This document shows positions 8,416-61,819 of a stretch of DNA of 64,000 nucleotides, piece by piece; within the stretch, counting starts at the first letter, position 1; each line of letters opens with the position of its first letter. A program made the position numbers and the translations under genes. The notes under the pieces are model-generated. The model was not told where the DNA came from, did not search any database, and saw only the letters and a list, made by a program, of their open reading frames with translations. Source of the stretch: a virus; the IMG/VR virus record IMGVR_UViG_3300021197_001654, positions 9,694-73,693 of that record, one strand, 5' to 3'.

Positions 8416-10875
8416 TTATCTGTCCTGACGATACGGAACACGGCCGAGCGGTGTTCCCTGAGTAGCGATACTTACGTCGAACGCAAAGCCAAATAACTTC
8501 AGTCGACCTAGCTCCCACGTACCGGGAATCTTAACCGCCTTATTAAACTCTTCCGCGCCAACATCATTGTCCCGATATAGCGACTCCCACACATGTTTCG
8601 ACCGGTCAAAAAAGTTAATGTCGGGAGCTATTTTCGGTTCGTCCGGGTCAGGCGGCGTAGGCGAAACCCCACCTACAAACTCAATCTCAAAAGCCCACGA
8701 GTTTGCGTTCTCGATGCCTACCGGGATCTGACGCCAGAATACTCGCGACTCTCGAGTTCTTGCCTTGCCGACAACAGCTTCTCGCGCCTGGTCAGACACG
8801 ATGCCCGAACCGTCGTCAGGACCGCAAAGGAGTAGGTCATTCATTTCCGTAAAAGGCTCCCAAGAGCCGTTCCGATAAAGACGAACGGTCGCCGTACCCA
8901 CCCAGGAGTCCAGCATCCCGACATACAGATTGCGAACATTAGTTGGGACTAAACCAAAATCACCTGAACGAAGCCAGGATGACCGGTAGCGAACTCTACG
9001 CGACGGCCCAAAATAGTCTGTCGACTGGCGATCAAGTACAAATATTCGGGCCAGGTCGACCCGATTACGAAAGTTTACCGTGGTCCCCGATGAGTCGGTT
9101 CCTGGACCAGCGACGACAATGTTTTGCTCGCGCGGGTCCGAGCCAACGGCAACGATATGGCGAGTGAAATCTTTCACGACACAAAGATCCGCGACGTGAA
9201 TACCTAAAGTCTGCCGGCGCCAGAACTCACCATCAAAGCAAAGCATGATCCGATTCTCAACTGAACCCTTCAGCGCAAGACAACAACGATACTCCTTCGA
9301 CTTCGGATCGAGGACAGATACCGCATTCTTAAACTGGCTACGGTTAAGCTCCATCTTAAATGTCTTATCTATAGAAGTACTAATTTTCATCAGCGCGTTG
9401 TTCGCACCTAAAGCATAGAACCCATCACGGCTGAGCCAGATAAGGCTACCATCAGGAGTTGCTTGAATTGAGCGTGGGCCGATGCAGCCTACGCCCGTCG
9501 AAATAGGCTTAGGAGACATAAAGTCGTCGTCGATTACGTACGTCGAGTTTTTCGTGAACGCGATAAGGTTGCCGTTGTGAGACGCCAGCCCTGTGATTGC
9601 GTCACCATCGCCGTCAGGAAAGATAAAGTCTTCGAGGGGAAAGGTGCCCGGAAATCCAACCTCTGACCGACGAACGACACCTGAGGACCCCGGAATGTTG
9701 CCGATAATCAATCGGCCTTGGTGCGCGCAGGCTACGCGGAACAAGGGTACCGAAATAGTCTCCGTCCACTCGAAGCCAAGCTCTACGTCGGCAGCGTTGT
9801 CGTCATAAAAGAATTGCCTCGACCCAGGAACACGAACGAGAAACCGAGGAATCGCGTCAGAGTGAAGCGTGTCCGGCGTCCGAAAGATTCTTGTGGCGAC
9901 TGTGTGCTCAGGAAGATCACCTGGCGACCGGACCAGAAACCGCCGAGTAAGGTCATCAATTTCCGTCCCTTCGGGCAGCGTGTGCGGGCCGGTCGTTTTA
10001 CCGCCGGAAATCAACTTTTGTAACGGCCTCTCGTCGTCATCGTCGTAAGCCACAGGCTCGAGAGATATCCCCCGAAAAGGCTCTGCTTGATTCGTGTGAA
10101 CCGTCGCGGCCTCGCTAGGAACAGATATCTCGGACAAGTTCCCGTTGATGTCCTCATACTGGAAGTAATAAAACCACGAACCCTTAAGCAACGCAGCGGC
10201 CTGACCAGTAAGCTCATCGCCTGCGGTGCCGATTCTTCCCTGCCACGAATAACCCTTAGAATTAGGGTAATAATTCACCGCATCATCAGCGCTCGGCTGA
10301 CTCGGCGAAGATACTCCAGGAGCGGCAGCTTTGCGACTGTATCCCAACGGCGTGGCCGAGTTATCCGAAGTAATTACTTGCGGTCGATCGACACCGTTGA
10401 AGTAAACAATTTGATCGTTAATAACAACGAACTGATCCAACGTCTCCGGATTAACCTGGGTACTTAGATTGCTCAGCAAGACTTGATCGGGACTATCATG
10501 ACCTCCGCTGAAAGAGTACAGCCTCGATCCGATGCGGTAGAGGAGCATCCGGGCTCCACCGTTTAATAGCTCCGCAGAAAACACGGCTTTCGGTACACCG
10601 GTTTTAAACCCGTAGTCCGGAACTTTATCCATCCACGGAGTAGTTAAATCGTTAACGTCAATAGAGACGTCCTCGAAAGCTGAACCATCCGCAGTGACAT
10701 AAATTTCAGGCTTGATTCTTAAAATAGAGGGCCCCACGACACTACTGAGTATGCCGTCGGGCCCAAGCTCTAAATTCTCTATGACCCACGCAAGTGGTGC
10801 GGGGGCAAAAACTTGCTTTCCCTCCCCTGGCGGGATGAAAACAGTATTTGTTTTTTGCTCCGTTGCACCAGCCAC
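8416..10875 (-). CDS. Tail nozzle / DNA-stabilisation protein (P22 gp10 / T7 gp12-like beta-propeller)
   Basis: 819 aa; HQGRLII, ITGLASHNGNLIAFTKNSTY, GVGCIGPRSI, LIWLSRDGFY segments typical of this class. Confidence 0.7.
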   Translation of the reverse strand: MAGATEQKTNTVFIPPGEGKQVFAPAPLAWVIENLELGPDGILSSVVGPSILRIKPEIYVTADGSAFEDVSIDVNDLTTPWMDKVPDYGFKTGVPKAVFSAELLNGGARMLLYRIGSRLYSFSGGHDSPDQVLLSNLSTQVNPETLDQFVVINDQIVYFNGVDRPQVITSDNSATPLGYSRKAAAPGVSSPSQPSADDAVNYYPNSKGYSWQGRIGTAGDELTGQAAALLKGSWFYYFQYEDINGNLSEISVPSEAATVHTNQAEPFRGISLEPVAYDDDDERPLQKLISGGKTTGPHTLPEGTEIDDLTRRFLVRSPGDLPEHTVATRIFRTPDTLHSDAIPRFLVRVPGSRQFFYDDNAADVELGFEWTETISVPLFRVACAHQGRLIIGNIPGSSGVVRRSEVGFPGTFPLEDFIFPDGDGDAITGLASHNGNLIAFTKNSTYVIDDDFMSPKPISTGVGCIGPRSIQATPDGSLIWLSRDGFYALGANNALMKISTSIDKTFKMELNRSQFKNAVSVLDPKSKEYRCCLALKGSVENRIMLCFDGEFWRRQTLGIHVADLCVVKDFTRHIVAVGSDPREQNIVVAGPGTDSSGTTVNFRNRVDLARIFVLDRQSTDYFGPSRRVRYRSSWLRSGDFGLVPTNVRNLYVGMLDSWVGTATVRLYRNGSWEPFTEMNDLLLCGPDDGSGIVSDQAREAVVGKARTRESRVFWRQIPVGIENANSWAFEIEFVGGVSPTPPDPDEPKIAPDINFFDRSKHVWESLYRDNDVGAEEFNKAVKIPGTWELGRLKLFGFAFDVSIATQGTPLGRVPYRQDR

Positions 10876-13864: not shown

Positions 13865-14914
13865 TTAGACCGCGCCGCCAGACACACATCCCTGCGCCAC
13901 TAGCTTGGTGCAGATCAGGTTGCCTTGCATTGCAAAGATTGCTGTCACCACGTCTTGATCGCCAACCCGTTCCTTGAACTCCGAGACACTCGGGGCTTCA
14001 AGCATTGGGAACTCGATGTAATCCGTGTTGAGCATATAAGTAACGCCGTCAGCAGCGACACCAGTGAAGTCTGCACGATCAAGGTCGATCGAAGATGTAA
14101 CAGAAGCAATTCCGAGGCTGAGGCCCAGGGTGTTGCTCTTGTCGATCTTGTCATCAACGATGCTCACGCGAACGTTCTGGCTACGCTCCTCTTCGAAGTT
14201 GGTGTAGGTATCATCGTCCATGAAAATCATGTCCGGACCCTTACCAATTCCGCCCGCGTAGTGCGAGCACTGGCGGTAAGCCTTACGAAGCTTGTTCATA
14301 CCTTCACCTGACCAGGTGCCAATGTCTTGGAACTGGTTGTAGTGGAAGTAACTGCTGCTCTTCGCCACGTTCTGAACAGTGTCAGTCTGGGTAGCTGGAG
14401 TCGCAAAGTCAAGAAGGCCATTCGTAACGCCAGTTCCGATACCGGCACTAAAGTCACCGTTGAGAGTCAGCATTCCCTGAAGCTCAGACGTGTTGAAAGC
14501 AAGACCGCGACTCACACCAGTGAGAAGGAACTTGTTCAAGTCAGCCTTTGCAGCTTCCATGGAAGTCTGAGGATACTCTTCGATTAGACGAATGATTGCC
14601 AACTTACCTGAGTTCTGAGCAAGCTCACGCTTAGGAATGTTGATTGCCATAACCAGACGATGAGGCTCGACCTCAAACTTCCGGATTTGTTGACGGCGGG
14701 TCATGTTCAGTAGTTCGTCACCAACGTAGACACCAACACCGCGAGCAGGAGCGCCGCCGGAGAAGGAACGTTCAATCTTTGTTCCGCCTTCCATGGGCAT
14801 ACGTGCTTTTGAGTTAAGTGCTTCGAAAAGCTCATTACTACGAACAAACGAGTTTACTAGTGGTCCGCGAAGGTCCGCGAACGTAGTGTTCAGCAGTTCA
14901 GTACTGATAGACAT
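13865..14914 (-). CDS. Major capsid protein (HK97 fold), 349 aa
   Basis: MSISTELLNTT...EGGTKIERS...YMLNTDYIEF...MQGNLICT; size and position; start moved to ATG 14914. Confidence 0.82.
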   Translation of the reverse strand: MSISTELLNTTFADLRGPLVNSFVRSNELFEALNSKARMPMEGGTKIERSFSGGAPARGVGVYVGDELLNMTRRQQIRKFEVEPHRLVMAINIPKRELAQNSGKLAIIRLIEEYPQTSMEAAKADLNKFLLTGVSRGLAFNTSELQGMLTLNGDFSAGIGTGVTNGLLDFATPATQTDTVQNVAKSSSYFHYNQFQDIGTWSGEGMNKLRKAYRQCSHYAGGIGKGPDMIFMDDDTYTNFEEERSQNVRVSIVDDKIDKSNTLGLSLGIASVTSSIDLDRADFTGVAADGVTYMLNTDYIEFPMLEAPSVSEFKERVGDQDVVTAIFAMQGNLICTKLVAQGCVSGGAV

Positions 14915-15134
14915 TTTGTTCTCACATAAAGTAGTTAGAAAATTTAAACGATTTCCCGCCTGCCCTGTACGTTCGCCGGACTCAATTGAGCTACCCGACC
15001 GCAAATTGGGTGCGTATATTTTGTTTACATTACATAGACTAATAGTGCAAGTAACTAATTCAGTAAGATTTCTACGCGGTTACCCGATTGAGCCTATTCA
15101 ACCACCGAACCCCTTCGTCGAAAATAGATTTACG

Positions 15135-15157
15135 TGATAAACTTACCGTATGGCTAA
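15135..15157 (+). promoter_or_regulatory. Extended -10 promoter (TGaTAAACT) for a probably leaderless terL mRNA, overlapped by operator-like TTACC-N5-GCTAA
   Basis: -10 ends 6 nt before the ATG; no SD upstream. Confidence 0.5.
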
Positions 15158-16799
15158 CACAAAGAAAAAAGAAGCTAAGCAGCATAGCGGCGCAAAGTTT
15201 GCCGAAGCCCCAGGACTACATCAAGGAAAAATTAGGGCGCTATTCGCAACACCCGATGCGTTCGTCTCAATGTGTCAAATTGTCCGAGAAGACGAGTCTA
15301 CAGGCTACATGGAGCCTACGCATACGCAAAAGAAACTCTTAAAAGCATACGACGAGAACCGCTGGCTTATGGTGAACAAGTTTCGCCAAGCGAAGATTAC
15401 AACCGTATCCGTCATGTTGCTGCTTCGAGACTGCATGTACCTCAGCGGAGTCAAGGGGCTGCTTATCGCTGAGCGCCAAGATACCGCAGAGGATATTTTT
15501 GAGCGCATACTGTTCGCTTACAACAAGCTCCCAGATGATGTTCGAATGCCGCTGACACCGGGCAAGAAAGCTGGCGCCACACAGATGCAGTTTGTACACG
15601 GCGGCGGAATTAAAGTTCTGACTGCCGGTGGTAGGTCTCCCGCGATCGGACGCTCAATTGACCGCCTGGTCATCACTGAGTTCGGTGAAGCGCAATGGCA
15701 ACGCAAGGCAGCCATCAACATCTTCCCGACGGTCAACAAGAGGCCCAACGCAAAGGTCATCCTTGAGTCGACGCCAGGCAGAGCCGGATCACACCACGAA
15801 CAGATGTGGCGCTCGGCGCTCGAGGGATCCAGTCGATTCCACCCACTGTTCCTTGAGTGGTGGGAAGACGATAGCTGCCGAGAGATGGAAGAAGATTTTA
15901 CGCCTAGCGTAACTGAACTTGAATATATGAAACGCCACGCGGGGATGAGTAAATATAATCTCGCATTCCGAAGGCGAGGTCTCAATACAGAGTTTGTCGG
16001 GGATACCCGGCTGTTCTCATGTAAGTACCCGTCAGACCCCTACGACGGGTGGCTAGGAACAACAAATCCCGTCATGCCGGCAGAAGTACTTAAGCCTTGG
16101 TTGGCTAAGGCAAAAGCTGACCCGCCAATGTCCATGCACGGGTGCCACGAGTTCGACGCACCGATCCCCGGAAGAAAATATCTAATCACCGCTGATCCTG
16201 CAGGCTTCGGTAGCACAGGCGATAAATCTGCGCTGACTGTGTGGGACGCCCAAGACTGGCGGGAAGTTGCTTTCTGGGAGGATCGAGAAACTCCCGACCG
16301 ATTCGGGCAAAGGCTGGTACGAATACAAAAACGATACAACCAGGCATTGTTGGCCGTAGAGTCAAACGCAACTGCATGTATCGCTATCCTCAAGGACCAG
16401 GGCACTCGGAACCTTTTGTGGACGGACAGAAACCACCCAGGCTGGTACGCAACTCAAAAACGAGTGCAGGAATCTGAAGCCCGACTTGTGCAAATGCTCC
16501 GCGAAGGAGACATTTATATCCGCAGTCGCGGAACCTTACATCAACTACTAAACTATGACGGCTCAAAGAAGAAGCGCGTGCGTGGCGAAGACGGAATACT
16601 CCACCACTTCGACCGCGCGAGGACCGCTGTCATGGCCGCTGATATACTGTCGAAACGAAAGTTTAGCGCACCGCCGAAAGAAACCGGACCCACACACACC
16701 GCCGGACAAGTTACAATTAGGCAGCTTGACCAACACAAACACGCTAAGCAACAGCAAGCCACATCACCATTTAAACCCGCATCACTAAACTGGTCGTAG
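15150..16799 (+). CDS. terL: Terminase large subunit
   Basis: Walker A KFRQAKITT, Walker B variant LVITE, motif III ESTP, nuclease ADPAG...DKSA, LAVESN, HHFDR. Confidence 0.93.
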   Translation: MANTKKKEAKQHSGAKFAEAPGLHQGKIRALFATPDAFVSMCQIVREDESTGYMEPTHTQKKLLKAYDENRWLMVNKFRQAKITTVSVMLLLRDCMYLSGVKGLLIAERQDTAEDIFERILFAYNKLPDDVRMPLTPGKKAGATQMQFVHGGGIKVLTAGGRSPAIGRSIDRLVITEFGEAQWQRKAAINIFPTVNKRPNAKVILESTPGRAGSHHEQMWRSALEGSSRFHPLFLEWWEDDSCREMEEDFTPSVTELEYMKRHAGMSKYNLAFRRRGLNTEFVGDTRLFSCKYPSDPYDGWLGTTNPVMPAEVLKPWLAKAKADPPMSMHGCHEFDAPIPGRKYLITADPAGFGSTGDKSALTVWDAQDWREVAFWEDRETPDRFGQRLVRIQKRYNQALLAVESNATACIAILKDQGTRNLLWTDRNHPGWYATQKRVQESEARLVQMLREGDIYIRSRGTLHQLLNYDGSKKKRVRGEDGILHHFDRARTAVMAADILSKRKFSAPPKETGPTHTAGQVTIRQLDQHKHAKQQQATSPFKPASLNWS

Positions 16800-17040: not shown

Positions 17041-18828
17041 ATGGCGTCCAAACTATCAAAGCTGATTGATCGTCACCTAGACTTCTACAAGAGGTCCGAG
17101 AAGACTTCGTTCGATAAGGCCCGAAGGTTCTATCGGGGTGACTTTTTCGCCAACACAGATAGTGACATGGGCGGCACGCGCATGGACTCGTATCTATGCT
17201 CGAAGAACTTAATCTACGCTATCGCAGACACCGCCGTTAGCGCACTGCTCGGACCCAATCCGACAGTCGCGGCGGTAGCTAGGACACCAAAATCACAAGA
17301 TTCGGCAACGTCTGTGTCCGGTCTTCTTGAGTACATCTTCCGATCTAACAAATTCCGACGTAAGGCATCAACCGCTCTAATTGACGCTGTTTTATGTAAG
17401 CGCGGAATCTTTAAGACCGGCTGGGATGCTGATCGAGACATGCCGATTGTCCGAGCCGTAAACCCATCATCGATATTCTTCGACCTCACCGTGAGAGACC
17501 CTGATGACATCAGGTACTGGATCGAGGCGACCGTCATTTCGTTCGATGAATTTAAGGATCGAGTAAGATCAGGTCTATACAAAGCCGAGCTTGTTAAAGA
17601 CGTAACGCCTGATCGGTACCCAAAATGGTTGATGGATCGCAATCAACAGAGCGACACACAGTCTGTGCGTGACGCGTTCCAGTGGGTCACGATTTACGAG
17701 TACTACGACCGCGAAGGCGGCACAATCCAGCATTACGTTAAGCAAGCTGACGCCATCGTATTCGAAGACAAGATCGACTACATCCCGTACTCAATGTTTA
17801 GCTTGAACCAGTCAGGTATCGACTGCTTGGGCTTAAGTGAAGTTCAACTTGTCCTTAAGCAACAAGAGACAATCAACGATCTGCTCACCCACATGAAGCA
17901 AATCACATATCTTCAGATTCCGCGAATCCTGTACGATTCCGGTCGACTCTCAGAAGAAGATCTGAATAAGGCCGTCGAAGCTAGCGCGGGCTCATTTATC
18001 GGTATCAACCCGTCTAATAGCGAGGCTCTACGCACACTTGCTACGCTGTTCTACGAAATGCCACAGCCTCAAAACCCTCAGGGTGTACAGGAGTTTGTTG
18101 CCCGCCAGGAAGACGACGCTGCGTTTATCTCTGCGCTTGCCGAGGCTGCTCGCGGCCAGGTTGTCGGCGCCCGCACAGCAACCGAGATGGCGATTATCGA
18201 CGCTCAAATGCGAACACGACTTGCGACGAGAGAGGGGCATCTCAACGACGCAATCGAAGATGTTGCGCGGAAGGCGTTCTACCTCAGCAAAAAGTACATG
18301 CGGGAACCTCGCCTTATTCGTATCGCAGGTGACCGAGGCTGGGCTCAGCTAGCCCACAAAGACTTGATGGATGTACAGGTCGACTTCGAAATGGTCTCCT
18401 ACAACCCGATTCGTAAGAACCCAAGCGTCATGCTCGAGAGCTTGCTTCAACTGATCCCATTCCTGGTAGACAACGAAAATGTCGACATCAGAAAGCTTAC
18501 CGAAGAAGTTATCTCGGGTATGGGCTTGTCACGCAGAATCATTATCCCAGAGGCCGAGCTTCAAGAAATGCAGGCCGAGATGATGGAGCAACAAGGTGGG
18601 GCTGTAGAGGCTCAAGCCCAGGCGGCCCTTGGCGGTGCTGCGGGCGGCCAACCGTTCCTCGAAGCGCAACAGATGCAGCAGATCCAAGCGACTATGGCTC
18701 AGTTACCGCTCGAAGACCAGGTTAGGATGGCGAAGGAAATCGAGCAGAAAACGGGTATCTCGATACCGCTACCGCCTGGATTGGCTGAGCCCGGTCAGCC
18801 TGCGGTACCCGCCGAAGGAAGTAACTAG
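17041..18828 (+). CDS. Portal protein
   Basis: 595 aa after terL; KNLIYAIAD, GIFKTGWD, ARTATEMAI motif, Gln-rich C-terminal barrel. Confidence 0.9.
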   Translation: MASKLSKLIDRHLDFYKRSEKTSFDKARRFYRGDFFANTDSDMGGTRMDSYLCSKNLIYAIADTAVSALLGPNPTVAAVARTPKSQDSATSVSGLLEYIFRSNKFRRKASTALIDAVLCKRGIFKTGWDADRDMPIVRAVNPSSIFFDLTVRDPDDIRYWIEATVISFDEFKDRVRSGLYKAELVKDVTPDRYPKWLMDRNQQSDTQSVRDAFQWVTIYEYYDREGGTIQHYVKQADAIVFEDKIDYIPYSMFSLNQSGIDCLGLSEVQLVLKQQETINDLLTHMKQITYLQIPRILYDSGRLSEEDLNKAVEASAGSFIGINPSNSEALRTLATLFYEMPQPQNPQGVQEFVARQEDDAAFISALAEAARGQVVGARTATEMAIIDAQMRTRLATREGHLNDAIEDVARKAFYLSKKYMREPRLIRIAGDRGWAQLAHKDLMDVQVDFEMVSYNPIRKNPSVMLESLLQLIPFLVDNENVDIRKLTEEVISGMGLSRRIIIPEAELQEMQAEMMEQQGGAVEAQAQAALGGAAGGQPFLEAQQMQQIQATMAQLPLEDQVRMAKEIEQKTGISIPLPPGLAEPGQPAVPAEGSN

Positions 18829-52849: not shown

Positions 52850-53019
52850 CCCGCAGCCTTCCGGCGTTGGTTTTCCATGCGGCTTTTTGCGCTTAGTGCA
52901 AGCTTCCACAGGCGTCGCTTCTGGGCCGCAATCAACACCTCTTGAGGATCAACTCCCTCTTTCTCCAGGAGCCTCCAGGGCACTCGCCTACGGTGAAGTC
53001 GTTCATCATCTAAATCCAT
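52846..53019 (-). CDS. Small basic protein MDLDDERLHRRRVPW...RRKAAG (57 aa), not in ORF track
   Basis: GGAGG RBS; coupled to both neighbours. Confidence 0.65.
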   Translation of the reverse strand: MDLDDERLHRRRVPWRLLEKEGVDPQEVLIAAQKRRLWKLALSAKSRMENQRRKAAG

Positions 53020-54944
53020 CACGCTACCTCCAACTTGCTGATAATGCTGCTTACAAGAGCGTCCTCGTCTTCCATACCAAGAAGCTTGTCGCCCAAGCCA
53101 TCAAGCTCATCGGCCTTAAGGAAGGACTCGATAGGGCCAAACTTGTCTACGAGAATCTGAACGACACGCTCGTCGTACGTTCCTTGAGCAACAACAACTT
53201 TAAGAAGCGTCGGGCTGCCTCCTAGACGGTCAAACCTGCCCTTCCATTGAAGGAAATCACCAGGCTTCCAAGGAAGCATCGCAAAGATAGCGAGGTTCGC
53301 CGTCTGCATACCATCAACTCCGGTGCCCACACTCTGCCCCGTAGCCACCAGGCAGCACGCCTCATCGCTGTTCCTGAAGGCATCAATCATCTGGTCTCGC
53401 TCAGTCTCAGACACACCGCCATGGGCCATCCACACGGGCACACCCTTCTGGGCCTCGTCCCCCTTGCTTAATTGTTGACGCAATTGATGGGCCCACAACT
53501 CAGTCTCACGCCTGCGCGCAGTAAAGATTACGACTTTACCGCCACCCTTTAGGCCCTCAATAGCCTCTTCGATGACGTACCGACGTTTACGCCCGCAGGC
53601 CTCGGCAAGTCTCGCCTCGACGACACGCTCTCGGCCCTCTGGCCGGGTCGCCGCCTCACGAGTCATCTGACGTACCGCTTGATTAAACGTTTGCTCGTCG
53701 CTAAACCGATCGGCACGATTAAGTTCAGTGTTACCCAGGTAATCTACCTGAACTCGCGTACTCGGAAGGCTCGAGTGCGACTCACTGTACGGAACTTCGT
53801 GTACAAAGAACGAGCACCTTGCTTTCAGTTCTTTGATGTTGGAATACCCGCTATCGTTCATGCCCCCGTAGGCGCCAGGCCGAGCATCGCAGTAGCGACT
53901 AGCAAAATTAGAGTAGCTGTGGGAGAACCCGCCAGGAGCCAGCAAATCAAGCTGTGACCACAGCCTTCGAGGGCGTCCATCATCCAAGGGTGTAGCTGTC
54001 AGTCCGATACGGAGGTCGATGCTCGAAATCCTCGACACTTCCATCATCGCAACTGCGCGAGCGTGGCGATTTACCTGTGAGTTAGGGTTCTTGCTCGCCG
54101 ATGTCTTCCGCTTCTCGAAACGCACACTACCATCGACGTTATGAATCGCCGTCCAGCGTTTACTGTTTCCATGCGTGTGAATCTCGTCCAATATGAGTAT
54201 TTCAGGGGCGATACCCCGGATAATCCCTATGTTATCGGCGATTGACTCCGCGCCGACCACGACAAACTTGCGTTGACCGGTTTCTGCGCACTCATCTACG
54301 TACTGACTAAAAGTTTTGTCCTTCTTACGGGTTTCAGCCTGAGGCTTAACGCGGAAAGGCGTAATGTTAGTGTACTCTTGGACCTGACTCCACCAGACGT
54401 GCCGGGCTTTAGCTGGACAGACCACAACAACGTCACCAGGACGCCCAAGAGCCGCCATAATTGCCCCGAGAGTCTTGCCTGAGCCACACGACCAGACATT
54501 CATGACGTATGGGCGGGAGTTTGCCCAGGCAGCCCCCATAAATTGATAGGGTGTTGCGATATCCGCAACGTGCGGACGCATTTCTTTCGTCTCGATAGCA
54601 TGAGTTACGAGTTGAACTCCCTTTCGGCGGAGATCGTCACGACTCTCAGCGGTGTTCGCCCACGGAGTTACAATTTGACGGCTAGTTGAACGGCACCAGA
54701 AGTTAACGCCGGCATGTTTAATCATGCTCTCGAATAACCAGGCTGCGTGCAGCGGTGACTTAACTAACCACTCGTCACGCTCACTTAGGAACTCAGGATT
54801 CGCGTGCTTTAACCGTACGTTACGTGTGTTAAACGAGCGTACGTAAACCATGCACCCCGGAATCAAAGCTTCTACTTGACTCATGAGTTCGATGTCGGAT
54901 TTAAATGTTCTAAGTTCGTATTCGAGTGTTGGTTGGTCGACCAT
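53019..54944 (-). CDS. SNF2-like superfamily 2 helicase
   Basis: GSGKT, VVCP, DEIH, LTATP, GTGVDG, QWKGRFDR. Confidence 0.9.
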   Translation of the reverse strand: MVDQPTLEYELRTFKSDIELMSQVEALIPGCMVYVRSFNTRNVRLKHANPEFLSERDEWLVKSPLHAAWLFESMIKHAGVNFWCRSTSRQIVTPWANTAESRDDLRRKGVQLVTHAIETKEMRPHVADIATPYQFMGAAWANSRPYVMNVWSCGSGKTLGAIMAALGRPGDVVVVCPAKARHVWWSQVQEYTNITPFRVKPQAETRKKDKTFSQYVDECAETGQRKFVVVGAESIADNIGIIRGIAPEILILDEIHTHGNSKRWTAIHNVDGSVRFEKRKTSASKNPNSQVNRHARAVAMMEVSRISSIDLRIGLTATPLDDGRPRRLWSQLDLLAPGGFSHSYSNFASRYCDARPGAYGGMNDSGYSNIKELKARCSFFVHEVPYSESHSSLPSTRVQVDYLGNTELNRADRFSDEQTFNQAVRQMTREAATRPEGRERVVEARLAEACGRKRRYVIEEAIEGLKGGGKVVIFTARRRETELWAHQLRQQLSKGDEAQKGVPVWMAHGGVSETERDQMIDAFRNSDEACCLVATGQSVGTGVDGMQTANLAIFAMLPWKPGDFLQWKGRFDRLGGSPTLLKVVVAQGTYDERVVQILVDKFGPIESFLKADELDGLGDKLLGMEDEDALVSSIISKLEVA

Positions 54945-54962
54945 GTGGACCTCTTTGACACC

Positions 54963-55037
54963 AGCGTATCGAACCCTTACCGCTACGTCAAGCCACTTAC
55001 TTGATTTACTCTTAAAATCGTGCTACCGTAACGGTTA
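54963..55037. promoter_or_regulatory. Divergent promoter pair with operator-like sites
   Basis: Minus: TTGACG-17-TACGCT; plus: TTGATT-17-TACCGT with TG; TTACC-gctac-GTCAA and CTACC-gtaac-GGTTA. Confidence 0.65.
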
Positions 55038-55045
55038 CCGGAGTT

Positions 55046-55357
55046 ATGGTACCCATGGTCACGACGAATAAATTTTCTCAAGCAGTCACTAAATACCGCG
55101 ATACCCGTAACTGGAGTCAGGCAGATCTCTCTCGAGAATCCGGACTAACTCAAGCGGAGGTAAGCCGTGTAGAGTCTGGTCAGCGGCTACCTACGATGCG
55201 AATTGTTAAGGGTTTATCTGAGGCTTTCGCGTCATCTACGAAAGCAAAATTCAACGAGCCTGTACGTTACGAGGCGTGGGTTGCGTATCTAGTTGACCTG
55301 GGTGAACGCGTTCGAATCGACGCCCGTAGCGGTCCCGGAAGATGGGCTAAGCGATGA
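55046..55357 (+). CDS. XRE-family HTH transcriptional regulator
   Basis: WSQADLSRESGLTQAEVSRVESGQRLP. Confidence 0.9.
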   Translation: MVPMVTTNKFSQAVTKYRDTRNWSQADLSRESGLTQAEVSRVESGQRLPTMRIVKGLSEAFASSTKAKFNEPVRYEAWVAYLVDLGERVRIDARSGPGRWAKR

Positions 55358-55740
55358 GCCGTAAATGCTTTCCTGTGTTTAAGGAGAACAGTCGGGTACC
55401 CGTGTGGCTGTCTAAAGTTTCGCCCATCGAAATAGGTGCGATTAGCCTGGCTCTGTTTGTGTTTTCTCGCGGTGAGATGACAAAGACTACCAAGCGCCAC
55501 GAGACAATCCACTACCGGCAGTGGGTCGAGCTTGGGTTCCTGGGCTTCTTAGTTCTGTACCCACTACTCTGGCTTATCAACCTTCTAAAGTACCGAGACG
55601 GGGCTGTAGCGTATGCTGAAATCGCATTCGAGCGAGAGGCTTACGGACATGAGGAAGAAAGCGGATACCTTTCAACAAGAAAAGCGTACGCGTGGGTGAA
55701 ATACCTTAGCGCCTCACACCCCAGATTTTTGGAGGAGTAA
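55354..55740 (+). CDS. HExxH zincin-like membrane-associated protein
   Basis: RHETIHYRQ, hydrophobic helix, FEREAY. Confidence 0.75.
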   Translation: MSRKCFPVFKENSRVPVWLSKVSPIEIGAISLALFVFSRGEMTKTTKRHETIHYRQWVELGFLGFLVLYPLLWLINLLKYRDGAVAYAEIAFEREAYGHEEESGYLSTRKAYAWVKYLSASHPRFLEE

Positions 55741-56033
55741 TGATAAAACTTGCGATGATAGTAAGCTTTTGTGTATCCACAAGCGCTGCCGCAGCAGAGT
55801 TCAATCCTACGCACAGGCTCGATGCGCTCGAAGCATCTACGGGATTAACGCTCAAGCCTACGGCTGATCTCGATCAGGCTCGTAGTGGGGAGTTCCGTTG
55901 GGACTCAAGCGCTGGTTTCTGGGGGTCACTCGTGGGCTTAGCGATCACGACGACGATTATTGTATTGGCGGTAAACGCTGCCGATAAAGACAACAACAGC
56001 CCCTACGAGCCGATGGAGCACTCATCTCATTGA
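55740..56033 (+). CDS. Signal-peptide and TM protein
   Basis: N-terminal signal (STSAAAA) and C-terminal TM. Confidence 0.65.
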   Translation: MIKLAMIVSFCVSTSAAAAEFNPTHRLDALEASTGLTLKPTADLDQARSGEFRWDSSAGFWGSLVGLAITTTIIVLAVNAADKDNNSPYEPMEHSSH

Positions 56034-56327
56034 GTCGATCTTAAGCTTCAACAACTCGTTCTCGCGCTTCACGTAGTCTACTTCGACCTTGAGCCCCGCA
56101 ACTTCCGTCATCAAGTCGATAATCTGCTGCAGATGCTCGTCTCGCTCTTCTTCTAGCTTTTCGACTCTTTTAATAAGGTCATCTCGGTACAACGCTTGCT
56201 CAGCTTTCTCCTCTTTCCGCACCTCCCTTTTTTGCTTCAACATGAACTCATAAAACTTAAACGCGCCCGCACTAAACACGCCTGTAACGGCAGCCACGAT
56301 TGCAGCAGTAGTGGTCGGCTTATCCAC
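56022..56327 (-). CDS. Membrane-anchored coiled-coil protein (holin/antiholin-like)
   Basis: N-terminal TM, then heptad repeats. Confidence 0.65.
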   Translation of the reverse strand: MDKPTTTAAIVAAVTGVFSAGAFKFYEFMLKQKREVRKEEKAEQALYRDDLIKRVEKLEEERDEHLQQIIDLMTEVAGLKVEVDYVKRENELLKLKIDSMR

Positions 56328-56739
56328 GGAGATCCTTGTGCATTACTTCCATACGCATTTTAACGTATATCCAAACCCACAGGGTAAAGTAGACTGCGGT
56401 CACTACCAGGCTACGCCCGACGTCACCAAAGGCAAACTCGGGGTCCGCCATCACGCTCATGACGAACTTGGTAGTGGAGAAGACGTACAGCATCAAGTAC
56501 ACGCCAACGAACCGGGAGCAGGAGCGGATGTTCGGGAGGCTAAACAGCATTCCCAAAGCCACAACAAAGTACAGTGCATACTGAAAGTAGGCCCACTCGT
56601 TGCCCCCATCCAGGGCTTCACCATAGCTCATCCAAAGTACGCGGTTGTTGGCCAGGTCAGCGATGTTCCAGAACAAAAGCAGGGGTCCATAGTCGTGGTA
56701 GACCAGGATGTCCTTGTAGGCCTTGAAAAAGCTTCTCAT
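56320..56739 (-). CDS. Four-TM membrane protein
   Basis: Four hydrophobic segments; start moved to ATG 56739. Confidence 0.7.
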   Translation of the reverse strand: MRSFFKAYKDILVYHDYGPLLLFWNIADLANNRVLWMSYGEALDGGNEWAYFQYALYFVVALGMLFSLPNIRSCSRFVGVYLMLYVFSTTKFVMSVMADPEFAFGDVGRSLVVTAVYFTLWVWIYVKMRMEVMHKDLRG

Positions 56740-56775
56740 TGTGTCACCGTTACCCAACCATAACTTGGAGATACC

Positions 56776-57267
56776 ATGGCTGAACACTCATTAGATGACA
56801 TCGTCCATTCGATCCAGTCTGCGGTGCTCGCGGCAACGGACATTGCTGAGCGCCACGAACTCGACTCGATAATGAAGCAGGAGTTCTGGGAACTCAAAGT
56901 CGATGACAAGGGAGACCCAGTCAAGGATGACGCGGGTAGAGAGGTGTACACACCACGTATGGTGACGATGCGCGTACCAACCTGGCAGGAAGGCAAACTT
57001 GTCGATCAGGATATTCCTGTGCCGTTACAGTCTCTTACGACGGGTCAGAGCCTCAGCGTTGACCGTCTCGAAGTTGAGATGTCAGTTCAGATATCGGGTC
57101 TGGAGACGGACAAGTCTAAGGGTAAGTTGATGATACGGCCTGGAGCGAGTTCTTCTTGGTTCCATAAACAAAGCAACACTGCTAAACTGAAGCTGGTTTT
57201 TAAGGGTAGCGAGCCTCCAGAAGGTTATGCAAGAATTGACGACCAGTTAATTAAACTTCTCCCGTAG
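56776..57267 (+). CDS. DUF2589-like protein (short paralog)
   Basis: SLDDIVHSIQSAV, VPLQSL...LSVDRLEVEM, AKLKLVFKGSEPPEG; GGAG RBS. Confidence 0.75.
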   Translation: MAEHSLDDIVHSIQSAVLAATDIAERHELDSIMKQEFWELKVDDKGDPVKDDAGREVYTPRMVTMRVPTWQEGKLVDQDIPVPLQSLTTGQSLSVDRLEVEMSVQISGLETDKSKGKLMIRPGASSSWFHKQSNTAKLKLVFKGSEPPEGYARIDDQLIKLLP

Positions 57268-57274
57268 ACTGTAA

Positions 57275-57787
57275 ATGTCCGACAAAGAAAAATCGCGTCA
57301 TGATGAGTTAACCAAACTTGGTGTACCAACTCACGATAGCGGTGGTGCTTTCATTCCGATTGAGCAACGAGAGAAGCTGGCTAAGCACTATGAGCCGTCC
57401 ACGAGTGAGCGTGTGATCGATACCATGCGTCATGAAAGTAAAGTGCGGGGCTCACCAAATGCTAGAACATTGCAGAGAGCCGGCGATTATTTGGGTACTG
57501 TTCCGCCTGTGGGTGCTCCAGGAGTAGTCGTGCAGACTGCGGGCGATGCTTTATATACGGGCGCCTCGGGTTATTTGGCCTCTCAAGATGTTCCTGGTGC
57601 AACTGAAGAAACTATTGGTGGTTTAGCCGCACTTCTTTCACCTATTCCGCGCGCACTTATATCACCCGAAAAGCGTAAAATGATTCGTGCTGCGTTACAA
57701 GACCTGGGTATATCCCAAGTAGTGCAGGAAACAGGTAAGCATTTAGGTAACGCGGAACAAGAAAAAGCACTTGAATCGAAACCGTAA
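57275..57787 (+). CDS. Hypothetical protein with Gly-rich hydrophobic helices
   Basis: 170 aa between the DUF2589-like genes. Confidence 0.7.
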   Translation: MSDKEKSRHDELTKLGVPTHDSGGAFIPIEQREKLAKHYEPSTSERVIDTMRHESKVRGSPNARTLQRAGDYLGTVPPVGAPGVVVQTAGDALYTGASGYLASQDVPGATEETIGGLAALLSPIPRALISPEKRKMIRAALQDLGISQVVQETGKHLGNAEQEKALESKP

Positions 57788-57799
57788 TAGGAGTCCATC

Positions 57800-58405
57800 A
57801 TGCCAGACCAACTCGTAAACATGTCATCTCAGTTTGGTGGTCTTCCCATGGACCAGCTTATTGGTGGCCCTCTCAAGGCTGCCTGTAGCGCTCAGGTTCT
57901 GCTGGCTAAGGCTTCTGCTGACTTCATCAAGGACGTCGGCCTGGACGACGCTGGTGGCGGCAAGATGAATGCCCGCACAGTGGACTTCAGCTTTAACAAG
58001 CCAGTTCAAGCTCCTGACGGAACAACGACTCTTGAAAAGGTTGACCTGCAGGTTCCCCTGCTCGCAATCATCAACACGCCAAGCTTGTCTGTGAAGGAAG
58101 CCGAGGTCCGCTTCACCATGGAGGTGAAGTCCTCTACTTCGAGTAAGACTACTTCAGACACCAAGGCTGAGCTTACAGCGCACGCCAAGTACAATGCAGG
58201 ACTGTTTAGCTGCGACGTTACTGTTCACGGCTCTGTGGCTAACCACAGCGAAAACAGCCGCAAGAGCGACAACAGTGCTAAGTACGACGTGAAAGTCGTT
58301 GCCCGTGATGACGGTCCTCCAGAAGGGCTTATGAAGGTTCTGGACATGTTGAACGACGCGATTGCCCCGACACAAGGTGTTCCGGCACCAGCAAAAACTA
58401 AGTAG
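57800..58405 (+). CDS. DUF2589-family protein
   Basis: FGGLPMDQLIGGPLKAA..AQ, VPLLAII.TPSL, FTMEVKSS, RKSDNSAKY, PPEGLMKVLDML. Confidence 0.85.
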   Translation: MPDQLVNMSSQFGGLPMDQLIGGPLKAACSAQVLLAKASADFIKDVGLDDAGGGKMNARTVDFSFNKPVQAPDGTTTLEKVDLQVPLLAIINTPSLSVKEAEVRFTMEVKSSTSSKTTSDTKAELTAHAKYNAGLFSCDVTVHGSVANHSENSRKSDNSAKYDVKVVARDDGPPEGLMKVLDMLNDAIAPTQGVPAPAKTK

Positions 58406-58419
58406 TACAGGAGTACACC

Positions 58420-59130
58420 ATGGCTAGTTACGATTTCTCTAAAGATAAAGACAAACTTCAAGACCTCTCAGGCGGTGATCGCCCTCCGTACAAAAAAACT
58501 GACCTGGAGCGCGAAGGCTTTGTCGAGCAGTCTCCCGGAGCGTACGTTGATGGGGGCCGTAACGTAGCCGAAGATCCGAAAGATCCGGCGCAGATGCTGC
58601 ACGATATGAGGGTCGAAGAGCAAGAACGAGCCGAGATCCGCCGTATGCGCATGGACCAAGGCAAGGATCCCTTTGCGGAAGATAAGCCTGCTCTGACGGC
58701 AGGCACTTATGACGGTGCTGGCGGATATAAGTACGAAGTTATGGGTGACGGTCAGATTAAAATTGTCGGGGCCCCAGGCGGAAAGGGCGTCGGCGTGACT
58801 CTTAAGGCTGACCATCCAGCACACGAAGCAATCTCAGCCGAGTTGAGCCAGAGTGGTGCGTCTCCGTCAGGCGAAAGCCGCCAAGGCGAGGCTGACCTTC
58901 TAGCGTCGATGGAGGGCAGTAAGTCTCGTCGAGAAGAAAGCGCTCGATCCGCGACAGGCGTTACGCCTGGAGAAGGTCGCTCCGGAAAAGAAATGGCACG
59001 AGTTCGAGGTCTAAGCAACGAAGATCAAATTGCAGAGCTTGATCGCGGTCGAGGTAAGGGCAATAAAGTCAGCCTCAGCGATACGGCTCAAGCAGCGCTT
59101 GATCGCACAAGAGAAAAGAATCGTAGCTAA
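58420..59130 (+). CDS. Hypothetical charged protein
   Basis: 236 aa, AGGAG RBS. Confidence 0.75.
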   Translation: MASYDFSKDKDKLQDLSGGDRPPYKKTDLEREGFVEQSPGAYVDGGRNVAEDPKDPAQMLHDMRVEEQERAEIRRMRMDQGKDPFAEDKPALTAGTYDGAGGYKYEVMGDGQIKIVGAPGGKGVGVTLKADHPAHEAISAELSQSGASPSGESRQGEADLLASMEGSKSRREESARSATGVTPGEGRSGKEMARVRGLSNEDQIAELDRGRGKGNKVSLSDTAQAALDRTREKNRS

Positions 59131-59143
59131 TCGTCCCCCTGGG

Positions 59144-59210
59144 CCCCCCACCCACATCGCTTCTGCTCACGCGCGGGCTGATGCATGAGCGTTTCCCACC
59201 GGGTGGGGGG
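59144..59210. other. Long GC-rich hairpin between convergent operons
   Basis: CCCCCCACCC...GGGTGGGGGG outer stem, GCTCA..TGAGC inner stem. Confidence 0.6.
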
Positions 59211-59211
59211 T

Positions 59212-59517
59212 TTAGGCTTTCTCTAACAGACGCTCTAGCTTAGACACGATGTCGTTGTGTACTCTCGTTCGAGTAATGAGAAAGTCTTTGGACTGAGAGT
59301 CTTCTCTATCGCGGTACTCTTTAATGACTTTATCGTACCGCTCACGCATCTTCTCAGATCGCTCACCATACTCTTTACGGATCTCGTCAAGTTGATCCTG
59401 AAAGCCCTCTACAAGCTTGTCCAGTCGCTTCTGCATCGTAAAGAACTGATACACCAAGAACGCAGCGAAGACACCGAGGTGTCCATCAGCTAACAGGGAA
59501 TCGACTAAAGCCTCCAC
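59212..59517 (-). CDS. Holin-like protein (BhlA/UviB-like)
   Basis: GHLGVFAAFLVY TM then coiled coil; follows endolysin. Confidence 0.6.
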   Translation of the reverse strand: MEALVDSLLADGHLGVFAAFLVYQFFTMQKRLDKLVEGFQDQLDEIRKEYGERSEKMRERYDKVIKEYRDREDSQSKDFLITRTRVHNDIVSKLERLLEKA

Positions 59518-60089
59518 TAGACAGGCTCTTCAATGAGCGTGTACGTAAAGCTATTCCCCCACTTACTCTTAGCCGCGTAGCAGATGCTCATAAACTCATC
59601 AAAGTCAGCACTGTGACTAAAGACTTGGCACCCCGCAGACCACTTGTCTACTTGGGTCGAGGAAGCCCCTGCTTTATGGATGTTGATTCCGTAATAGCCT
59701 TCAGTAATAGACTGTACGTCAAGGTCAATAACATCGTCTTTATTGCTATCACGATAAGTCTTGACTGTACCGTTTCTCTGACAGAGCGCATCGTATCTCC
59801 CCTGGTGCTTGTCGATCTTCCATACAGACCGATACTGACCAGGCACAAGGATAGCAGTACCTTTTACGTTGCTGGGGTTTTCTAGCCAGTACCTGCCGGG
59901 CTCAGTAGTACACTCCCAGGTACGCGTAATCCAACCCTGCTCGTCCTTATAAACTACACAAATACGGTCATCAAAGCTGTTCGCCTTATGATCCTTGCTA
60001 CGAATACCAATGATGTTCAGGTTGTACTCGCCGGACTCAAACACCGCATGACCGAGAGAATCGACGTAGTCTAATAGTACAGGCCTCAT
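59517..60089 (-). CDS. Putative endolysin with L,D-transpeptidase-type His/Cys motif
   Basis: GINIH-x11-WSAGCQV; flanked by membrane/lysis genes. Confidence 0.72.
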   Translation of the reverse strand: MRPVLLDYVDSLGHAVFESGEYNLNIIGIRSKDHKANSFDDRICVVYKDEQGWITRTWECTTEPGRYWLENPSNVKGTAILVPGQYRSVWKIDKHQGRYDALCQRNGTVKTYRDSNKDDVIDLDVQSITEGYYGINIHKAGASSTQVDKWSAGCQVFSHSADFDEFMSICYAAKSKWGNSFTYTLIEEPV

Positions 60090-60376
60090 CGGCTGCAGTT
60101 CGCGTTTGTAGCTTGACAGATTGCAGCCTGGTTGATGGCCTGCTGCTGCTGCATCTCAAGCATCTTGGCCACGATGTCTTCCATCTTGTCGAGGCGTGTC
60201 TCTACGCCCTGGATCTTAAGGTCTACAACATCTTGCTTACCTGACTTGGCTTCAAGTACAGTGACCCGCTTGTCCAAGTCTTCACTCTCTTGAGCCGCCG
60301 ATTCGAGAGATGCGAAACAAATACCCGCAGCAAACACTACAGTCAGCCCAGGCACCGCGAAGTCTTTTAGTGTCAT
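60086..60376 (-). CDS. Membrane-anchored coiled-coil lysis-module protein
   Basis: TM then heptads; ATG 60376. Confidence 0.65.
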   Translation of the reverse strand: MTLKDFAVPGLTVVFAAGICFASLESAAQESEDLDKRVTVLEAKSGKQDVVDLKIQGVETRLDKMEDIVAKMLEMQQQQAINQAAICQATNANCSR

Positions 60377-60816
60377 TTTCCTGCCCCCGCGCTGTAATGG
60401 TATGTCGCGCCTATCCCAGCCGTGACTATACCTACGATTATAATTGTTTCCACTCGACCTAACCAACGTTGAGTTGTAGGTCTGTCTAACCATGGCGTAG
60501 GCTTGTTCGCCAACTCAAGTTTGTTTTTATACCAGTAGATCTCCATCTCTAACCGAGACGTCTCGATTCGGTATTGCGATTGAACCGCGACACCCCACTT
60601 CTCGGTCTGCAATAAATCCGCGAATTGCGACAACGGAACCGCTACGGCCGAGCACTTAGACACTCCATCGGAGCCTAAAATTGTGGGTGAGATCGACTGA
60701 CTTTTGTTAATCGCGATTACTTTTGCACACTCACCTTGAACGGGCTCGGGTGCAGCGGGCCGGTCGATTGAGTCAGACGCAAAGACCGTACCAAGGAAAA
60801 GGAGGATTCCAATCAT
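60373..60816 (-). CDS. Signal-peptide, coiled-coil, C-terminal TM protein (spanin-like)
   Basis: Topology and lysis-module position. Confidence 0.55.
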   Translation of the reverse strand: MIGILLFLGTVFASDSIDRPAAPEPVQGECAKVIAINKSQSISPTILGSDGVSKCSAVAVPLSQFADLLQTEKWGVAVQSQYRIETSRLEMEIYWYKNKLELANKPTPWLDRPTTQRWLGRVETIIIVGIVTAGIGATYHYSAGAGK

Positions 60817-61064
60817 CGTCGTTTCCGAGCGTTACCCAAATCAGCCAAGTCATCAGCAGGAGAATCGCCGGTAGTCGCTGATCTGATTCGATCTAGCTCT
60901 TCCTTTAAATTATCTTGTACGCTGCTCAACGCAGCCTGAGCCGCCGTATTCGCCGGAGCCGACGTAGTAGATTTCGATGAGTTTAAGCGCCCTTTAAACA
61001 GTCGGAATGCCGCGATAAGAACCGCCGCCAAGCCTGCAATTGCGATGTAGGGTCCTTCGATCAT
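60813..61064 (-). CDS. Membrane-anchored protein (i-spanin-like)
   Basis: N-terminal TM, helical tail; GGAGG RBS. Confidence 0.55.
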   Translation of the reverse strand: MIEGPYIAIAGLAAVLIAAFRLFKGRLNSSKSTTSAPANTAAQAALSSVQDNLKEELDRIRSATTGDSPADDLADLGNARKRR

Positions 61065-61072
61065 GAGGCCTC

Positions 61073-61453
61073 CTAAGATGCAACCAATTTAACAACAACA
61101 GCGGAGGTCGGGTTCGAGGCGTTTTGCTTTGCCGGGTCGGTAGTACACCACATGCTTAAGCCAGCGGCATAATCCTGCCCATCCGGAAATACGTACGAGG
61201 CTTTAGTTCCTGGCGCCGCCGCAAACATCCAAGTAGGTACGCCATTGCTGGCGTCTGTCGGTACAGCACTCGCAGCGTCCCGAATTCGGACATACGCAAA
61301 TGTTGAGGTGTTTGCCGTATTATCGATATCAATCAAATAAAACGTGCCCGAAGTGTTGCCCGTAACGTTGTTCGCAGGGGAGTTGTTGGCCAAAAAATCG
61401 ACCACAAGGTTACCGCCTAGAGCCGTGATCGTACTTGTTTTTGTGACCGACAT
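61073..61453 (-). CDS. Beta-sandwich virion-type protein, type B copy 2
   Basis: MSVTK...P.NNV...IDN...YV...YVFPDG. Confidence 0.75.
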   Translation of the reverse strand: MSVTKTSTITALGGNLVVDFLANNSPANNVTGNTSGTFYLIDIDNTANTSTFAYVRIRDAASAVPTDASNGVPTWMFAAAPGTKASYVFPDGQDYAAGLSMWCTTDPAKQNASNPTSAVVVKLVAS

Positions 61454-61459
61454 GCTACC

Positions 61460-61819
61460 TCAACTACAGATAAGGGTAACGTCGACACTACCCGCAAAGC
61501 TGGTTGTATCGTCCTCACCGCTGTTGGCGCTCACCCAAAACTTCAACTCCGTAAACGCATATCCTGTAGGTATGTGAATCGTCTTTATCGCTGAGGCCTT
61601 ACCCTTAAGTGCGATCTGAGTATTCGTTGTGTCTGCGGTATCTAAGATATGAAGGCTTACGGCTGCGGACGATTGAGCAGAATTGATGATAACGGTGTGG
61701 AGGGTTCCGGGTGCGTTAGTCGGATTAGTCTGCGCCGTAGTCGCATCAATGCCCGTACAAGAGATTACTTTGTAATCAACCGCATCCTGGAACCCAGTAC
61801 TTTTAAGCTCAATCGCCAC
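61460..61819 (-). CDS. Beta-sandwich virion-type protein, type A copy 2
   Basis: LKS...YKVI...T..PGTLHTV...IPTGYAFT.L..W. Confidence 0.72.
   Translation of the reverse strand: MAIELKSTGFQDAVDYKVISCTGIDATTAQTNPTNAPGTLHTVIINSAQSSAAVSLHILDTADTTNTQIALKGKASAIKTIHIPTGYAFTELKFWVSANSGEDDTTSFAGSVDVTLICS

Follow-up and report, generated by a model that had tools for sequence, protein, structure and literature searches.

Holins are small alpha-helical membrane proteins, and we know of no holin that is anything other than a helical membrane protein. Pepco (Trypco1/2) is a small cytoplasmic protein that forms beta-barrel pores from inside the cell (bioRxiv 10.1101/2025.11.14.688446). Here we describe a pair of phage genes, A and B, whose soluble products may breach membranes by way of a beta-hairpin. 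The genes lie on the plus strand of a 64,000-nucleotide stretch of DNA (the window), positions 9,694 to 73,693 of IMG/VR virus record IMGVR_UViG_3300021197_001654, which makes up nearly the entire 73.7-kilobase (kb) record. Both encode proteins of Pfam family DUF2589 (PF11655). An earlier note on this DNA, prepared from the sequence alone, called this a family without assigned function, and we likewise find none in Pfam or in the searchable literature, where the family receives passing mentions only, in two expression tables. The pair is real, conserved and unexplained, and the idea that it forms a pore is reasonable and unproven. We put the probability that A and B are a soluble beta-hairpin pair that breaches the membrane at about 0.4.

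The cassette consists of four plus-strand open reading frames (ORFs), given here with lengths in amino acids (aa):

56776-57267, plus strand: A, the DUF2589 paralog that lacks a hairpin, 163 aa (PF11655, 59.3 bits), with a GGAG ribosome-binding site 8 nucleotides upstream
57275-57787, plus strand: orf170, a variable gene of 170 aa between A and B that belongs to no family and has no clear ribosome-binding site
57800-58405, plus strand: B, the hairpin-bearing DUF2589 paralog, 201 aa (PF11655, 151.8 bits), with an AGGAG ribosome-binding site
58130-58279, plus strand: residues 111-160 of B, comprising Ser/Thr-rich flanks and an amphipathic beta-hairpin, whose strands lie at about residues 121-131 and 136-146 (nucleotides 58160-58237)
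58420-59130, plus strand: orf236, a variable gene downstream of B encoding a charged, Gly-rich protein of 236 aa that belongs to no family

Two divergent DUF2589 paralogs

A and B had been proposed to be divergent DUF2589 paralogs with shared motifs, and profile comparisons bear this out. Both proteins match PF11655 over nearly their full length (E 7e-16 for A and 2e-44 for B, with a gathering cut-off of 23 bits), and a search of the whole genome returned exactly these two copies. Their similarity to each other is weak by BLASTP (26% over 103 aa, E 0.002). A comparison of the A and B subfamily profiles, in contrast, gives an alignment over their entire length (hhalign probability 99%, E 2e-18, 166 columns), and VPL..L and PPEG/PEG motifs are common to both.

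The family is large, with 1,665 clusters at 50% identity, and is widespread among bacteria; the B of the window shares 43-64% identity with copies from bacteria and other viruses. In a Pfam scan of the four cassette proteins at E<=0.1 only DUF2589 was matched, and neither orf170 nor orf236 drew any match. Searches of PHROG, PADLOC and NCBIfam returned nothing relevant for any of the four, and sequence and profile searches of the PDB were equally unproductive. Among 50,697 GenBank phage records, B matched only one 4-kb faecal fragment (tblastn), and a megablast search with the region found nothing. In the ESM Atlas, B matched DUF2589 clusters only and orf170 drew just weak, unnamed matches. Some members of the B subfamily are considerably longer than the window copy. 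Two (P0148 and P0162, 366-409 aa) carry a Lys/Glu/Asn-rich coiled-coil tail of about 190 aa, and two others (P0135 and P0143, 330-408 aa) have an Ala/Thr/Gly-rich insert of about 120-200 aa between the second and third strands.

A and B as the conserved unit in related phages

We retrieved 80 related loci from IMG/VR, which form the basis for all counts in the phage clade. This clade is abundant, marine and uncultured, and was seen in runs from 10 studies. All 80 loci contain B, at 79-99% identity, and it is the best-conserved gene of the neighbourhood, while A is present in 74-78. The two genes are separated by 12-28 base pairs (bp) in 66 of 79 loci, and by an insert of 250-1130 bp in the other 13. 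The window belongs to the latter group, its pair being split by the 513-bp orf170. In its nearest relatives (L001 and L002, whose B is 99% identical) A and B are 12 bp apart and orf170 is missing.

The earlier note had grouped the pair with two orphan ORFs, orf170 and orf236. We find a homolog of orf170 in just one of the 80 loci and of orf236 in 4-6 of them (36-44% identity), and the spacing from B to the next conserved gene ranges from 36 to 1569 bp. Because the orphans rarely recur and the spacing varies in related loci, they are not part of the unit. Judged by gene content, orf170 and orf236 are variable genes, each in an insertion hot spot, and the A/B pair alone makes up the system. A protein encoded upstream at 55354-55740, also suggested as a partner, does not hold up in that role either, as it recurs in just 5 of the 80 loci. 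The view of A and B as a two-component unit fares much better: A adjoins B in all 26 of the further viral loci described below and in 77 of 80 bacterial loci.

Measured against the window copy, the ratio of nonsynonymous to synonymous substitution rates (dN/dS) comes to 0.048 in B, from 77 pairs, and to 0.047 in A, for which only 8 pairs were usable; dS is about 1.6 to 2.4. The value for the neighbouring endolysin, 0.038, is comparable. By this measure of codon divergence, A and B are under strong purifying selection.

The genes found between A and B in the 13 loci with inserts are unrelated and encode proteins of 85-363 aa (window positions 57268-57799; L003-L060, e.g. L058:5577-5960 and L060:4885-5973). 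The resemblance of one of them to pyruvoyl-type AdoMet decarboxylases is limited to a motif. A Gly-rich stretch, 'G..G.VP.P...G..Y.TGA', is common to several, orf170 included. We also considered orf170 and orf236 as degenerate DUF2589 copies and rejected this possibility (hhalign probability <0.1%).

An amphipathic beta-hairpin specific to B

The most distinctive feature of B is a segment in which residues 121-131 and 136-146 alternate between hydrophobic and polar around a G-W-G-P-F tip, with Ser/Thr-rich tracts on either side. The alternation is evident across the 80-member alignment of the B family. Among 35 diverse A proteins, the same position is occupied by a variable acidic and Pro-rich loop. 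A Ser/Thr-flanked amphipathic hairpin in the longer paralog that the shorter one lacks, as first noticed in the window, is therefore a property of the two subfamilies. Within the phage clade, residues 111-160 of B hardly vary even though dS is about 1.6, and because of this near-invariance we regard the hairpin as a constrained functional element and not as a disordered linker.

AlphaFold2 (AF2) models of A and B have a mean predicted local distance difference test score (pLDDT) of about 74 (73.6 for B) and share the same order of elements. They begin with a long N-terminal helix, followed by five long strands, then a short helix after VPLL, and end in a C-terminal helix after PEG. The models differ at residues 113-156 of B, where the hairpin is drawn in place of the brief loop found in A. 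The hairpin itself has a pLDDT below 50, and this low confidence fits a segment that would fold upon assembly.

Neither protein has a signal peptide or N-terminal hydrophobic segment by hydropathy, and no 19-residue window in either reaches a Kyte-Doolittle value of 1.5, so both are without a transmembrane helix. A prediction of the A and B complex from separate alignments, run without controls, gave an ipSAE of 0.10, where the mark was 0.32, and we do not use it as evidence on binding in either direction.

The hairpin had been compared to the membrane-inserting hairpin of aerolysin-like pore formers. The likeness in pattern stands, but kinship with that family is not supported: we find no match to its hidden Markov models (HMMs), Foldseek searches of the A and B models against the PDB gave no match at E<=0.001, and the models show helices on a sheet. 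A wide fold search of the PDB with VIA reached best Z-scores of 4.7 for B and 3.1 for A and listed no pore-former, the hairpin region of B being of low confidence in the model searched. A fold search of BFVD recovered a single homolog, A0A516MP19 (45% identity), and the rest was at noise level.

Association with wall hydrolases in bacteria

A scan of species-representative genomes yielded 80 bacterial loci from many phyla. They include representatives from Pseudomonas, Massilia, Collimonas, Paraburkholderia, Sphingomonas, Luteibacter, Myxococcales, relatives of Desulfovibrio, and others. The bacterial cassettes share a three-gene core consisting of B (80 of 80), A (77 of 80) and a soluble protein of about 89 aa (78 of 80). 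In several bacterial groups, AraC- or LuxR-type regulators are found upstream.

Wall hydrolases of three unrelated families recur beside this core. A GH19 hydrolase is present in 34 of the 80 loci, a PG_binding_1 protein in 4, and a GH108 muramidase with a PG_binding_3 domain lies directly upstream in six Luteibacter-type loci. In total, at least 44 loci carry such an enzyme. The two cassette GH19 proteins that we examined have no export signal.

Two operon layouts include GH19. In the Pseudomonas and Ferrovibrio type, A, B and the 89-aa protein are followed by small proteins, two of which have hydrophobic segments, and then by GH19. In the Burkholderiales type (L109-L158, e.g. L118:6327-9327), the five genes of the operon encode, in this order, A, the 89-aa protein, a soluble protein of about 180 aa, B, and GH19, and in 16 of 17 loci the stretch from the first DUF2589 gene to GH19 codes for no membrane protein. 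With a GH19 that lacks a signal and an operon that lacks a membrane protein, something else in the operon must carry the enzyme across. The Burkholderiales layout is therefore our strongest argument, and it suggests that it is the DUF2589 proteins that bring the hydrolase across the membrane. The 179-aa protein of the bacterial operon was tried as a hidden DUF2589 paralog and rejected (hhalign probability <0.1%).

Lysis context in phages

The genes surrounding the cassette in the window include an endolysin and several small membrane proteins:

55354-55740, plus strand: protease-like protein of 128 aa with two hydrophobic segments and an HETIH (HExxH) motif (phrog_15610 'protease', E 3e-26)
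56022-56787, minus strand: two membrane proteins by hydropathy, divergent from the cassette, one of 155 aa with at least two hydrophobic segments (tm155) and one of 101 aa with a membrane helix and a coiled coil
59212-59517, minus strand: protein of 101 aa encoded between cassette and endolysin gene; it has a membrane helix at the N terminus (its one hydrophobic segment) and a coiled coil, and is present in 51 of 80 loci
59517-60089, minus strand: endolysin-like gene convergent with the cassette, its product without signal or membrane segment (phrog_33083 'endolysin', E 4.5e-16; phrog_3000, E 3.8e-38)

The endolysin-like protein has no hydrophobic segment by hydropathy. Its gene lies 0.27-1.9 kb downstream of B, in convergent orientation, in 42 of the 56 related loci that have enough flanking sequence. 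The placement of the cassette next to lysis genes and on the opposite strand is accordingly typical of the window's clade, although it does not extend to other phage lineages, where the neighbours are genes of DNA metabolism. A further viral scan gave 26 more loci from several lineages, some on contigs of 100-200 kb and one of them bacterial-looking. In these lineages the pair is flanked by ribonucleotide reductase and pyrophosphatase genes or by genes for an Mre11-like phosphoesterase and a PD-(D/E)XK nuclease, and ThyX is also among its neighbours. The link to lysis is good in bacteria, moderate in the window's clade, and absent elsewhere in phages. Because other lineages place the pair among genes of nucleotide metabolism and recombination, an accessory role in lysis is weakened as an explanation for the phage copies.

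Proposed function and alternatives

In the model that we favour, A and B would be made as soluble cytoplasmic proteins, and B would oligomerise at the cytoplasmic membrane. The amphipathic hairpin of B (residues ~121-146, with its aromatic tip and Ser/Thr flanks) would contribute to a beta-barrel lesion, while A would help in assembly or gating. Wall hydrolases that lack an export signal would pass through the lesion to the wall, in this phage possibly the product of the convergent endolysin gene at 59517-60089. Alternatively, the pair might breach the envelope at a set time by other means. The analysis shows the paralogy of A and B, the conservation of the pair, the pattern of the hairpin, strong purifying selection, and the link to wall hydrolases in bacteria; membrane insertion, oligomerisation, contact between A and B, and the role in the phage cycle are steps that we infer.

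Several observations weigh against this model. The step from a conserved hairpin to a pore is an inferential one, and the predicted models of A and B match no pore-former. In the first hairpin strand, the hydrophobic face consists largely of Ala and Gly and could equally pack against protein. Residues on the polar face are also invariant in the phage clade, which points to specific protein contacts and not to a plain water-filled lumen. An HMM built from the 78 bacterial copies of the ~89-aa protein found no counterpart at E <0.3 in six-frame translations of the window and the 80 related loci. About 36 of the 80 bacterial loci are without a detectable hydrolase, and the Pseudomonas-type operons include small membrane proteins. 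In the window, small membrane proteins encoded nearby (56022-56787, 59212-59517 and 60086-61064) could be ordinary holin and spanins, and the phage is not obviously in need of another breaching device. Finally, the pair sits among nucleotide-metabolism and recombination genes in other phage lineages, where wall hydrolases make up only 2 of 56 neighbouring ORFs.

Some of these observations would be expected if A and B formed a soluble hetero-oligomer with no membrane role, acting as a scaffold, chaperone or regulator of partner enzymes. The hairpin would then serve as a contact surface between proteins, for example as a beta-barrel or collar between subunits. The invariant polar face, the Ala/Gly-rich face of the first strand, the gene neighbourhoods of the other phage lineages, and the tolerance of some B proteins for large inserts or a 190-aa coiled-coil tail all agree with such an assembly. 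However, it leaves unexplained why three unrelated families of wall hydrolase recur beside the cassette, and how a GH19 without a signal leaves the cell from operons that encode no membrane protein. We consider it unlikely. A different possibility is that A and B are a binary beta-pore-forming toxin directed at other cells, in which case the pair would be cargo released by lysis or by a holin- and endolysin-dependent route (type 10-like) and not the device itself. The pattern of the hairpin is that of secreted beta-pore-formers, the proteins are without a signal peptide like other cargo of lysis-type release systems, AraC- or LuxR-type regulators lie upstream in bacteria, and the small membrane proteins of the Pseudomonas type could serve as holin and spanin. 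In contrast, the Burkholderiales-type operons have no holin candidate, the benefit to an abundant marine phage is hard to see, and conservation in the phage clade (dN/dS 0.05) is very high, unlike that of most toxins acting outside the cell. We regard a toxin as improbable on balance.

The pair might also be a conflict module for superinfection exclusion or abortive infection, which would kill or depolarise the cell once it senses a competing phage. Defence systems often use pore-forming effectors, an insertion hot spot adjoins the cassette, and the cassette lies on the strand opposite to its neighbours in the manner of a moron. We give this idea little credence, as none of the four proteins has a PADLOC match, no sensor or protease partner is conserved (the HExxH protein being confined to the few loci noted above), and the pair is a fixed and highly conserved core of the clade, present in all of the retrieved loci, and not a variable accessory. 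The very high conservation within the clade would suit ordinary virion parts as well, which the earlier note had named as an alternative. This seems very improbable indeed: there is no PHROG match, the only GenBank phage match is the single faecal fragment, the head and packaging genes (at 8-19 kb) are about 35 kb away, and in bacteria the pair is found by itself, in operons controlled by cellular regulators and away from virion genes.

If the membrane-breaching model is true, A and B would provide a new solution for moving wall-cutting enzymes or other cargo over the inner membrane, in phages and bacteria alike, with a resemblance to gasdermin- or Pepco-type pores. A broader proposal is that the pair represents a new class of membrane-breaching machine, in which two soluble paralogs and a beta-hairpin barrel do the job of a holin or cargo-release device without a transmembrane helix. 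Such a class would be shared by bacteria, archaea, tailed phages and giant viruses, and the marine phage would carry its minimal two-gene form. We consider this broader proposal doubtful. In any case the phage copy is a minimal form that consists of two genes and lacks a third partner, and its hairpin is very strongly conserved; it therefore offers a clean expression construct.

Organization of the surrounding region

The minus strand of the window carries the replication module. The head and packaging genes form a separate module:

13865-15004: major head protein
15150-16799: terminase
17041-18828: portal

From an SNF2-like gene (53019-54944) to the endolysin-like gene, the genes are arranged in short blocks of alternating orientation. 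The upstream tm155 and 101-aa membrane genes are each found in only about 24 loci (tm155 in 22 of the 64 that have more than 1.5 kb upstream), and because of this the two proteins are not fixed partners of the pair. The 101-aa proteins at 56022-56327 and 59212-59517, both on the minus strand, flank the cassette. Their mutual similarity is short and confined to the region around the helix (E 0.003). Both may be spanin- or holin-like.

The start of A overlaps the GTG start of the divergent tm155 ORF by 12 nucleotides (56776-56787). An in-frame ATG at 56741 would instead leave a gap of 34 bp between this ORF and A. The overlap (-11) recurs at the start of A in many relatives, and promoters must therefore lie within coding sequence. 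A scan of 54800-61200 for promoters and terminators gave no more sites than shuffled sequence. At 59195-59220, where orf236 and the 101-aa gene converge, a short GC-rich hairpin with a T-containing tail may serve both genes as a terminator, although it is missing from the sites given by the consensus scan. Contigs from a marine metatranscriptome library map to 57209-57440, 57854-58344 and 58391-58554; they give neither level nor strand and may reflect carry-over of DNA, and we do not count them as evidence of expression.

Beyond the endolysin, two adjacent minus-strand genes (61073-61453 and 61460-61819) encode small Thr/Asn/Ala-rich proteins of 126 and 119 aa that belong to no family and may be paralogs of each other. 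Both are fast-evolving, with 31-38% identity in relatives versus 87% for the B gene.

Comparison with known systems

The closest counterparts of the phage pair are the bacterial DUF2589 cassettes, which belong to the same family and likewise pair a hairpin-less with a hairpin-bearing paralog. They differ in having the ~89-aa protein as a third component (78 of 80 loci), which is absent from the window and from the 80 related phage loci. In addition, the hydrolase, where one is present, is part of the operon in bacteria, whereas in the phage the endolysin gene is convergent and not in the same transcription unit.

Holin-endolysin(-spanin) cassettes of phages and type 10 (holin/hydrolase-dependent) secretion, into which they have been domesticated, resemble the DUF2589 cassettes in adjoining wall hydrolases that lack an export signal, and the proposed job is also the same, namely to get a hydrolase across the inner membrane. 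However, the DUF2589 proteins are soluble, are 163-201 aa in length and have no hydrophobic helix, unlike holins, and other phage lineages keep the pair away from lysis genes. Aerolysin-type toxins share with B an amphipathic hairpin made of two strands of about 11 residues, with Ser/Thr flanks and an aromatic loop at the tip. Their body is elongated and all-beta, and they have a secretion signal, whereas the DUF2589 models have two long helices on a five-stranded sheet and the proteins carry no signal. The DUF2589 proteins give no sequence-family match to aerolysin/ETX-MTX2.

Pepco and the bacterial gasdermins work on the principle that we propose here, with a soluble protein produced in the cytoplasm using beta-strands to perforate the inner membrane. 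They have no detectable homology to DUF2589, which shows neither a conserved partner protease nor any sign of a cleavable inhibitory tail and, by contrast, is a pair of paralogs. The A/B module belongs to Pfam DUF2589, of which it is a reduced version with two genes, and not to the holins, Pepco or the gasdermins; with the aerolysin types it has the hairpin pattern in common, but not the sequence family, the signal peptide or the predicted fold.

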